Shown: in pieces, positions 12,001 through 15,000 of the stretch
Numbering within the stretch: the first letter of the stretch is position 1
Layout of the letters: each line of letters begins with the position of its first letter
IMG/VR virus record: IMGVR_UViG_2563366804_000003
Direction: 5' to 3' (one strand)
DNA length: 15,485 nt
From: a virus
Taxonomy: Duplodnaviria > Heunggongvirae > Uroviricota > Caudoviricetes
Program-made: the position numbers

Positions 12001-15000
12001 CAGAGAATAGATAACCTACCTCATATGGTGCGCCAAAAAAATTAGCTATTGATACGGGCAAAAAAGCTGAAGCGATCAAAATTGAAAGGCAAAAAATAAG
12101 CCCAGTAATATAGTTTATTAAATTCTTAAATGAGAAACGTTTTGCTTGATTTACGGTCTTAACGAACGATCGCTTAACGACGGATAAAAGCAAATAGATG
12201 GCGACAGTTGCTAATGCCCCTTTCCACCAGTCTGGATATAGTTTTGCGACAATCAGACCAAGGAAAACCATGATGACAGCCTGAGCATTCACACCAACCC
12301 TCCCTTTAGCTTTGTTTAGAATGGCAATCATCATATATCCAAGACATGGCATTTGGTACATAGCTTGGGTCAGGATTTCAAATCCGATCCCCGTTGATGG
12401 GGCCGTTACAGTACGCGCATATCCGCTTTATGTGAAACAGGAAGATTTTTCTGATATCACTGCCACAGCAAAACACCAATTTCGTGACCAGTACGCGCGC
12501 GAGGGGTATCAGTTGCAAAATTTTTTGCAACTGCGTCCGACCAGTACGCACACGATGGCGGGGAGCACCATAAAACTGTTCTCTACATAAGACAGAGTGG
12601 TGGTGATGTGTTGATTATCGGCGTATATGCGCACAGGACGCGCTATGACGATGTTTTATGCGGGTACACCAATCACATGTATCTGGTGTGATAAATCGCG
12701 TTACATGACCTCTCATGTTGTGCTGGTGGTTATCACGACTTTCTGAATCTGGCCTTTGCCTGATATTTTGCGACAAGTACGCGCGCGTAGCATCGAAATT
12801 ATCGGATGGCGTATGCTGCTGGCAATATGAAGACCGATAGTATTAACCGAAAAGCGAAAGAGCTTCTCGATAACGGCAAGATCGCGGCAAGGGTTGCTGA
12901 ATTTGAACAGATGTAAGGAATGGAACCAGAGAGGCGCTGGCGGCGAAAAAACGCCACTACCAGCGGATAAATGTGCCAATCTTTTAGTTGGAAAAACAGC
13001 ATAGAAGGCTACCATGATATGTAAAGATTGCTCAAAAAGTTATTATCAACGTCTAATTTCATTAAAAATGCTCCTTATTGCTGTTAAAAATCAAAGAAAT
13101 CATTTAAAAACCGTTCAACACCCCCCATCTGTCTTCAAAAAGATTTGTGTTGGTTAGTGACTAGTTACCTTTTATATGTAAATATATCCACAAGGGAAGT
13201 GGTGAAAATTTCGACTATTTAACCATAATCAAAGGAGGTGAACATGTCGAATACATCTGCACATGCCCTCTTGAAAGATATCTGGGGCGATAGGAAATTC
13301 CCGGTTGATCCAGTATGGATTGCCAATGAGTTAGGGTTGGATGTTGTTGAAACCACGCTTGATGATGATGTTTCAGGCGCATTGCTGAAAGAGCCAGAAC
13401 AAGATCCAGTAATCATACTCAATCGTAATGATAGTAACGTGCGCAAACGATTTACGTGTGCGCATGAGTTAGGGCATTACGTCAAACGAACTGAGAACGG
13501 TCAGCCACTTGAATATGAGTTTGTTGATTACCGCGGAAAACTGGCAAGCCAAGGTGTAGACAGCGAAGAAATATTCGCCAATAACTTTGCAGCATGTCTT
13601 CTCATGCCAGAAAAAGAGGTTCGACGCCTCAACAATGCAGGATATGCACCAGTAATGATGGCTTCCTATTTTGGTGTATCCGATGATGCTATACGTTATC
13701 GCCTAAAGAATTTAGGGCTTCGATGAGTAATGACGTCTAGATCTTACGCTATATCTGAAAAACTAAAGCAAGCGGCAAGACAAGCCAGAGGTGAACCAGC
13801 CTCTGGCTCATCACCATCAGCAAAAACCCTCACACATCTAAATGATGAGGATCCAGCCAAAGCCCATCAGCGTGCAAAAACAAAAGATTTAAAAACAGAC
13901 ACAAAACTGAAAAAAATGTTTGCTCGGTGGTTTATCGGCATTCTGATAGGCCAGCTATTAGTTATGAATGGGATTTTTGTCCTTATTGGAGCAAAACTGC
14001 TCCATTTTAGTGATTTCGTTATAAACCTATTTATGGGGGGAACCCTCGCTGAAGTCTTTGGCATTGTTTTAGTGATGGCACGCTACCTGTTCTCCAAGCA
14101 CGTCTAAAAATCAAAATATAGGGCTACATTCTTAGAGCCACTGATAACTTTTCAGCATTGCTTCCCTGACGCTTCCACGCGCTGTAAATGTCTTTATCCC
14201 ATGCTTTACCAGCTTTTGTTTGATAGCCTGCTTCATTGAGCCGTTCCGCTATCACACGCCCATTATCAAATCCCTGTCGGATGGTATCGGCAATGATCTT
14301 TATAACTGCCGTTTCGTTATATGGCTTTGGTGGGATGTTCGGCTTTCCGGCAATAAGCGACGCAGCGGCTTTTTCCATGCGCTCCACCAGCCCAAGCATT
14401 CGTGAATCAATAGACTTTTCCGGCTGTCCCAGCTTCATGCGAATCGCATCAACAAGCCAGGAGGTTTTATCCCCTCCAGAAGCGAGAACAGACCGATTAA
14501 ACTCATCCTGCAATTCAGATGGGATGCGGAACGCGACCAGATTAGATTTGCTCATTGCAAAGACCATATCAGTGAGTAATATCCATACAGTATACCACTG
14601 TATAACACTGTTATACGCTCAAATATCAGCCAGAAAATAACGGGCCAATCACAAAGCTATCGCTGTGTTGTTGGTTCAGAGCTGGGCTGTGTTGGTTCAA
14701 AATGAGTTGATGTTGGTTCAATATTTCAGAAAAAACACAATAAAAACAACGATCTTTACAAATTGAACCAACTGAACCAACTGAACCAACTGAACCAACA
14801 CCTTTTTGCTTATCTATATAATCTGAGAGGCAGAAATGATAAGGGACAGGAAAGCTGAAGAGCTGGAGTCAAAAGGGCTATACCGGAGAGCTGCCGCACG
14901 ATGGGCAGAAGTCATGATGCTGGCAGATGGCGATAAAGAACGTGAACATGCAGCAAACAGACGCTCTGAATGTATCCGTAAGGCGGCACGCCCACCAGCA

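Follow-up and report, generated by a model that had tools for sequence, protein, structure and literature searches.

A predicted operator for self-repression by a ribbon-helix-helix protein in an Escherichia coli phage-satellite island

We analysed a 15,485-nucleotide stretch of viral DNA (IMG/VR record IMGVR_UViG_2563366804_000003), referred to here as the window, an integrative island located between yicC and dinD on the E. coli chromosome and 100% identical to the sequence of strain MB06101. In this phage-satellite island, the segment 14589-14616 is probably the promoter and operator through which a protein of 143 amino acids (aa) with an N-terminal ribbon-helix-helix (RHH) domain represses its own gene. 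This autorepression is predicted from sequence and is well supported in silico. The circuit is most likely of an ordinary kind, with unusually clear comparative support, and reveals no new kind of mechanism. It does give a testable function and an exact predicted binding site to a hypothetical protein that is widespread in E. coli and in Enterobacterales satellites.

The original prediction had described three direct repeats of 10 bp immediately upstream of a minus-strand gene for a 147-aa protein with an RHH-like N-terminus, and had read them as an autoregulatory operator. The three gapless units at 14587-14616 were confirmed in position and sequence: the plus strand reads ACAGTATACC ACTGTATAAC ACTGTTATAC, which in gene orientation (minus strand) is GTATAAC-AGT-GTTATAC-AGT-GGTATAC-TGT. 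The gene itself is shorter than had been proposed, as RefSeq gives 143 aa from an ATG at 14555; the 374 homologues are each about 143 aa long and all start with MSKS, and relatives do not keep the upstream ATG at 14567 in frame. The repeats lie 32-61 nt from the start codon rather than directly next to the gene. Their 10-bp register was retained, but units 2 and 3 are inverted 7-bp half-sites with centres 10 bp apart, together forming a perfect 8+1+8 palindrome of 17 bp, GTATAACACTGTTATAC, at 14600-14616 (repeat finder, I16). Two of the three units thus stand as conserved half-sites, whereas unit 1 coincides with the extended −10 element of the promoter.

The window statistics on the repeats alone are modest. 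Pairwise identities among the 10-bp units are 8/10, 7/10 and 5/10. No second triple tandem 10-mer of equal quality was found in the 15.5-kb window; first-order Markov simulations gave an expectation of 0.27 such triples per window and produced one in 1.1% of simulated 280-bp intergenic regions. Tandem Repeats Finder reported a weak period-10 array (14590-14611, score 37), and the repeat finder also placed a 7-bp inverted repeat within 14585-14603. It is the comparative data that establish the repeats as real.

For the comparison, homologous loci were drawn from species-representative genomes, metagenomes and IMG/VR, and three classes were distinguished by the predicted DNA-binding strand of the protein and by the operator of the gene. 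Class A, found in Escherichia, Klebsiella, Serratia, Morganella, Providencia, Photorhabdus and others, combines the strand [NST]-L-[VIT]-A-F-R with GTATAAC-N3-GTTATAC. In class B, found in Pantoea, Erwinia, Tatumella, Rosenbergiella, Mixta and others, the strand [LMI]-S-V-T-F-R goes together with direct GTCTTAC repeats of 10-bp period in 2-4 copies. The five IMG/VR loci of class C have the strand K-L-F-S-F-R (L6/S8) and several copies of GTATAC-N2-GT(A/T)TAC. Among 139 distinct promoter/protein pairs of classes A and B there were zero cross-class cases: all 73 distinct L6/A8 pairs carry GTATAAC-N3-GTTATAC, and the 66 distinct S6/T8 pairs carry the GTCTTAC repeats, with a single copy left in one locus. 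Loss of the repeats from otherwise conserved homologous loci had been named beforehand as an outcome that would speak against an operator; the operator was missing solely in three truncated pseudogenes. The idea of an autoregulatory operator was in this way upheld by the footprint and by an operator class that follows the strand residues without exception, but its direct-repeat arrangement was not, since the two half-sites are inverted here and direct in another lineage.

Ungapped profiles of 55 distinct type-A and 42 distinct type-B promoters showed conservation of the half-sites and of the motif TGnTAnnnT, but not of the 3-nt spacer or the upstream DNA. In the profiles of both classes, TGnTAnnnT begins exactly 2 nt after the last half-site. 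About 140 distinct promoters have repeated subsites that are spaced by approximately one helical turn and overlap their own gene's core promoter, as is expected of an RHH autorepressor. On the protein side, the alignment columns that are fully disjoint between classes A and B are 5, 6, 8 and 16 of 143, and the C-terminal domain contributes none. Providencia proteins that are 59-63% identical retain the type-A operator, whereas Pantoea type-B proteins that are 66-67% identical do not; the identity of the putative operator thus tracks the strand residues rather than overall divergence. One lineage (L113) has a different C-terminal domain, an SLTAFR strand and two type-A palindromes. Since all half-sites share the frame GT...TAC, the comparison fits a reading in which the invariant R10 would contact the outer bases and residues 6 and 8 the centre. 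The three strand/operator pairs might amount to a ready-made RHH recognition code. These natural specificity variants, 2-3 strand residues apart and each with its own half-site, are a handy resource for work on DNA recognition in the RHH family and on the divergence of repressor-operator pairs.

The number of operator units varies among relatives, as in the type-B loci L007, L127, L129 and L130, and some type-B promoters have 3 or 4 direct repeats. Besides the two palindromes of L113, both of which are complete, we found four sites in the type-C locus L184. This variation suggests that repression strength is tuned by operator copy number. The third unit in gene orientation, GGTATAC, is conserved in the E. 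coli/Klebsiella subgroup, where it may be a weak auxiliary site. Its type-B counterpart, GGTAAAA, matches the half-site at just 2/7 positions, and the sole window match to the pattern GTTATACNNNGKTATAC is the region of the third unit.

The promoter call rests on the conservation of the extended −10 element, because a consensus promoter scan of 14050-15200 found no −35/−10 promoter. Around −35 the fit to the consensus is poor, and neither class has an acceptable −35 hexamer. As the operator motif occurs once in the island, at the promoter of the RHH gene itself, the sole evident target of the RHH domain here is its own gene. We also scanned IMG/VR with GTATAACNNNGTTATAC for targets in trans: of at least 120 matching stretches, at least 28 were the gene's own promoters, and the other listed matches were of mixed composition, as chance would yield with a 14-base pattern in so large a collection.

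Of 5426 complete E. coli genomes, 361 contain the gene together with its promoter, and in every one the product is annotated as hypothetical; literature searches gave no description of the protein family. In the full-length AlphaFold2 (AF2) model, helices are formed by residues 13-25, 30-42 and 50-69, followed by a confident C-terminal bundle (77-143; predicted local distance difference test (pLDDT) >89). The first ~45 residues have the strand-helix-helix fold of the RHH superfamily. Between the two helices lies a glycine turn of the form G-x-S/T/N, in which G27, D29 and K30 are invariant and T/S31 opens helix 2; the equivalent turns are G-R-S in Arc and Mnt and G-L-S in CopG. When the protein was aligned by hhalign to Arc and Mnt, E values were ~5e-4 to 8e-4 at a probability of just 25-30%, and L6/A8/R10 were placed opposite residues that contact bases, Q9/N11/R13 in Arc and H6/N8/R10 in Mnt. 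A distant relative (P0150) gave near-threshold matches to HicB, RHH_1 and Arc. We accept an RHH fold, leaving membership in a curated sequence family aside. The predicted N-terminus of the original prediction accordingly stands as to fold and glycine turn, but not as a significant match to a curated RHH profile.

We propose that sigma-70 RNA polymerase would use the extended −10 element TGGTATACT without a usable −35 hexamer. The gene product would bind as two RHH dimers, each of which would place a two-stranded sheet in the major groove with L6, A8 and R10 as the proposed DNA-facing residues. These dimers would occupy GTATAAC and GTTATAC on the same face of the DNA, one helical turn apart, presumably as a dimer of dimers. 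Their footprint would run from approximately −34 to −18, stopping 2 nt short of the TG motif. The weaker third site over the −10 hexamer would perhaps be filled at higher protein concentration. Occupancy would exclude the polymerase, so that the protein level is held constant by negative autoregulation. We favour negative autoregulation by a dimer of dimers because the geometry, with subsites spaced by one helical turn within the core promoter, matches that of Arc, Mnt and CopG.

Several observations weigh against this proposal. Pfam contains no significant RHH profile match (best RHH_1, E 0.21, in 2/12 members), the hhalign probability for RHH is as low as given above, and PDB sequence-profile searches with full-length and N-terminal alignments returned no RHH protein and no meaningful match. 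The structure model is a monomer in which the strand is modelled as coil, the two-stranded sheet of a dimer lying outside the model. As the operator is only ~70 bp from the strand codons, the two could be co-inherited by linkage alone. The classes may reflect few independent switches: a rough neighbour-joining tree gave ~4 Fitch changes, a count that is uncertain because the tree is not robust, the sequence behind it being short and highly conserved. Some activators, too, have the geometry of a poor −35 flanked by repeats at 10-bp spacing, and the third unit is inseparable from ordinary −10 conservation. The concentration of the discriminating residues in the strand, together with the footprint conserved within each class, nevertheless argues for function.

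Positive autoregulation is a first alternative, in which the RHH protein on the same half-sites recruits or stabilises RNA polymerase at a promoter without a −35 element. It would explain why neither class has an acceptable hexamer there and why the type-B direct repeats span the −35 position with a 10-bp period; lambda CII activates in this manner at direct repeats straddling a poor −35. However, the conserved extended −10 type normally works without a −35 or an activator, and the operator is centred near −26 and ends 2 nt from the TG, inside the polymerase footprint like the operators of Arc, Mnt and CopG. Most characterised RHH proteins are repressors at their own promoters, and we consider activation unlikely.

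A smaller chance still is given to another binder of the repeats, be it a regulator of the host, a different protein of the island or the C-terminal helix-turn-helix (HTH) domain of the RHH protein itself, with the strand covariation as mere linkage. The ~70 bp between the operator and the first codons would recombine as a single block, and joint movement of the whole N-terminal module is suggested by the near-discriminating positions 16, 20, 24 and 40. Against this, classes A and B do not differ in their C-terminal domain, the neighbourhoods vary widely with the RHH gene as the sole constant neighbour, and the fully disjoint columns cluster in the 7-residue strand. A LexA (SOS) box at the repeats was considered and rejected, as CTGT-N8-ACAG matches the window solely at 7056-7071.

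The gene pair had also been suggested to couple replication or partition-like control to the neighbouring iteron cluster B. The window contains inverted paralogous origin-like clusters at 6526-6640 and 14669-14799, in which GTTGGTTCA is repeated in tandem at 9-bp spacing, followed by an AT-rich gap and GAACCAAC at 11- or 21-bp spacing. The first cluster comes directly after the stop codon of the Toprim/DUF927 primase gene and the second (cluster B) ~8 kb away, upstream of perC, which recalls the ori/crr pair of satellite P4. A common replication-control or partition module would agree with the origin-like character of cluster B as a paralogue of the post-primase cluster, and with the 56 of 126 distinct RHH loci that have at least 3 GAACCAAC-type iterons within 450 bp upstream. 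However, the other 70 loci lack iterons, and the iteron sequence does not differ between operator classes, while the half-sites, of the GTTATAC type, are unrelated to the iterons of either cluster, GTTGGTTCA included. Moreover, the same cluster pair, one of them upstream of perC, is found without an RHH gene or operator in EcCIMP1, an experimentally validated phage-inducible chromosomal island (PICI) of E. coli MP1 that is mobilised by the P22-like phage Kapi1 (PMC11773190). As regards partition of the ParG/omega type, no ParA-type ATPase was found among the RefSeq island genes or in Pfam scans of neighbouring genes, and there are 2-4 sites only instead of a centromere-like array. Coupling to the iterons is unsupported because the modules are separable although their adjacency recurs, and we regard it as very improbable.

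Least credible of all is a mere promoter sequence or a chance AT-rich repeat without a dedicated binding protein, which would suit the modest window statistics and a third unit mostly explained by its likeness to a −10 hexamer, but not the perfect dyad or direct-repeat symmetry kept in ~140 distinct promoters with variable spacers and unconserved flanks, nor three discrete sequence classes with 2-4 copies.

Self-repression might be only one half of what the 143-aa protein does. It could be a bivalent regulator of the satellite family, whose RHH domain sets its own level and whose C-terminal HTH-like domain binds a shared target, such as the origin-like GTTGGTTCA iterons, which neighbour the gene in ~44% of loci, or helper-phage DNA. 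We hold this extension to be doubtful. If it were true, satellite replication, or interference with the helper phage, would be linked to a factor under autoregulation, and a gap would be filled, as no maintenance repressor is known for Gram-negative PICIs.

Among the closest characterised RHH proteins are Mnt and Arc of phage P22. They share the N-terminal strand x-F-R-x-P with alternate residues toward the DNA, one dimer per half-site (as proposed here) and an operator inside the core promoter. The mnt operator is 17 bp long, as is the symmetric type-A operator of the window, and the helix after the RHH domain (residues 50-69, low pLDDT) could serve for oligomerisation as in Mnt. Unlike Arc and Mnt, the 143-aa protein has no significant sequence-profile membership and carries an extra HTH-like C-terminal domain of 65 residues. 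Its DNA-facing L6/A8, hydrophobic and small, replace Q/N or H/N, and it is encoded by a phage satellite and was not found in the phage collection. The Omega repressor of pSM19035 and ParG are also RHH proteins that read short direct or inverted repeats, but these are contiguous 7-bp heptads instead of sites at 10-bp spacing, and here neither an annotated ParA partner nor a centromere-like array is present. CopG of plasmid pMV158 is a small RHH autorepressor with an operator that overlaps its own promoter beside the replication region. It differs in being a single domain of 45 aa co-transcribed with rep, whereas the 143-aa gene is monocistronic, convergent with cargo genes and unlinked to the primase gene; an hhalign alignment of the 143-aa protein to CopG was not significant. 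Scans of the protein against Pfam, PHROGs, NCBIfam and PADLOC gave nothing significant, with sub-threshold matches to HTH_62/Recombinase and the unnamed phrog_30270 only. The features of the locus are listed in Table 1.

Table 1. Positions of the operator, promoter, gene and iteron features in the window
Feature	Position	Strand	Description
Distal operator half-site GTATAAC (gene orientation)	14610..14616	-	~−34 to −28; palindrome arm; invariant in 55 distinct type-A promoters
Proximal operator half-site GTTATAC (gene orientation)	14600..14606	-	~−24 to −18; centre 10 bp from distal half-site; near-invariant in type A
Third unit GGTATAC	14590..14596	-	6/7 match to proximal half-site in exact 10-bp register; overlaps −10 hexamer
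Extended −10 element TGGTATACT	14589..14597	-	TG 14597-14596, hexamer TATACT 14594-14589; conserved TGnTAnnnT
Predicted transcription start	14582	-	placed 7 nt downstream of −10 hexamer; predicted 5′ untranslated region ~27 nt
Two-domain protein gene, 143 aa	14124..14555 (including stop codon)	-	RefSeq WP_024180635.1
RHH domain, codons 1-45	14421..14555	-	strand ~5-11, helices 13-25 and 30-42, invariant G27 between
C-terminal domain, codons 77-143	14127..14327	-	nearly invariant, helical, generic HTH-like
Iteron cluster B	14669..14799	.	three TGTTGGTTCA at 21-bp spacing, AT-rich gap, four TGAACCAAC at 9-bp spacing; separate from operator

The gene order of the island is integrase, AlpA-type regulator, AntA antirepressor, DUF4222, Toprim/DUF927 primase, a block of P22-like ejection proteins, ImmA/IrrE peptidase, small membrane protein, the 143-aa gene (minus strand) and perC. 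Its backbone is common to EcCIMP1, with AlpA, a 143-aa hypothetical protein, AntA, DUF4222, the Toprim/DUF927 primase, a 53-aa protein (identical accession, WP_001018524.1), DUF2824, ejection-protein genes, perC and two iteron clusters. EcCIMP1 differs by another integrase and by its site at tRNA-Thr instead of yicC-dinD, and it has neither the RHH gene with its operator nor the ImmA/membrane cargo. The RHH protein goes unmentioned in the EcCIMP1 paper (PMC11773190).

In Serratia, Pantoea and Klebsiella the RHH gene is positioned at the end of the island, with chromosomal genes within 1-2 kb. Beside it lies convergent and variable cargo. In Serratia and Pantoea this is Abi_2, in Klebsiella a DprA-like gene with a 218-aa partner, and in the window a CapP-like ImmA peptidase with a membrane protein. 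The RHH gene looks like the conserved flank of an accessory/defence hotspot (loci L051-L056 and L308-L311), and as a conserved gene it flanks the variable, defence-like cargo region in EcCIMP1-like islands. An ImmA/CapP-like protease as the obligate partner of the RHH protein was rejected as a general rule, as an ImmA homologue was found near the RHH gene in just one other locus. For the ImmA/IrrE peptidase of the window (module 13238-14107) the best PADLOC match is capP (E 4.9e-25), and its gene is followed by that of a 125-aa membrane protein (phrog_5346). No HTH partner is present among the annotated nearby genes, and the 0.9 kb upstream of the module (12362-13237) holds no annotated gene. 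The whole region, 12362-14107, may be an uncharacterised defence or cargo module.

Further upstream, 7265-11923 comprises P22-like ejection/DNA-transfer genes within the satellite island, which encode DUF2824, a 225-aa protein, a 473-aa ejection protein and a 701-aa injection protein. The last is an incomplete pseudogene according to RefSeq, yet an intact open reading frame in the window. The ATG at 7087 belongs to the operon for the 53-aa protein, DUF2824 and the ejection proteins. The LexA-box-like sequence CTGTTGTTTTATACAG (7056-7071), which is located directly 3′ of a TATAAT hexamer and 16 nt before this ATG, is the only place in the window that fits CTGT-N8-ACAG (0.24 matches expected), and EcCIMP1 has it conserved at the equivalent position. 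The ejection-protein operon may therefore be under SOS control; such control has been reported for operon I of Staphylococcus aureus pathogenicity islands (SaPI).

At the other end of the island, the PerC-family gene (14836-15123) is at least 58% identical to relatives in other loci, and the PerC homologue of EcCIMP1 was reported to silence, not activate, LEE1 expression (PMC11773190). The perC promoter must lie within or beside iteron cluster B.
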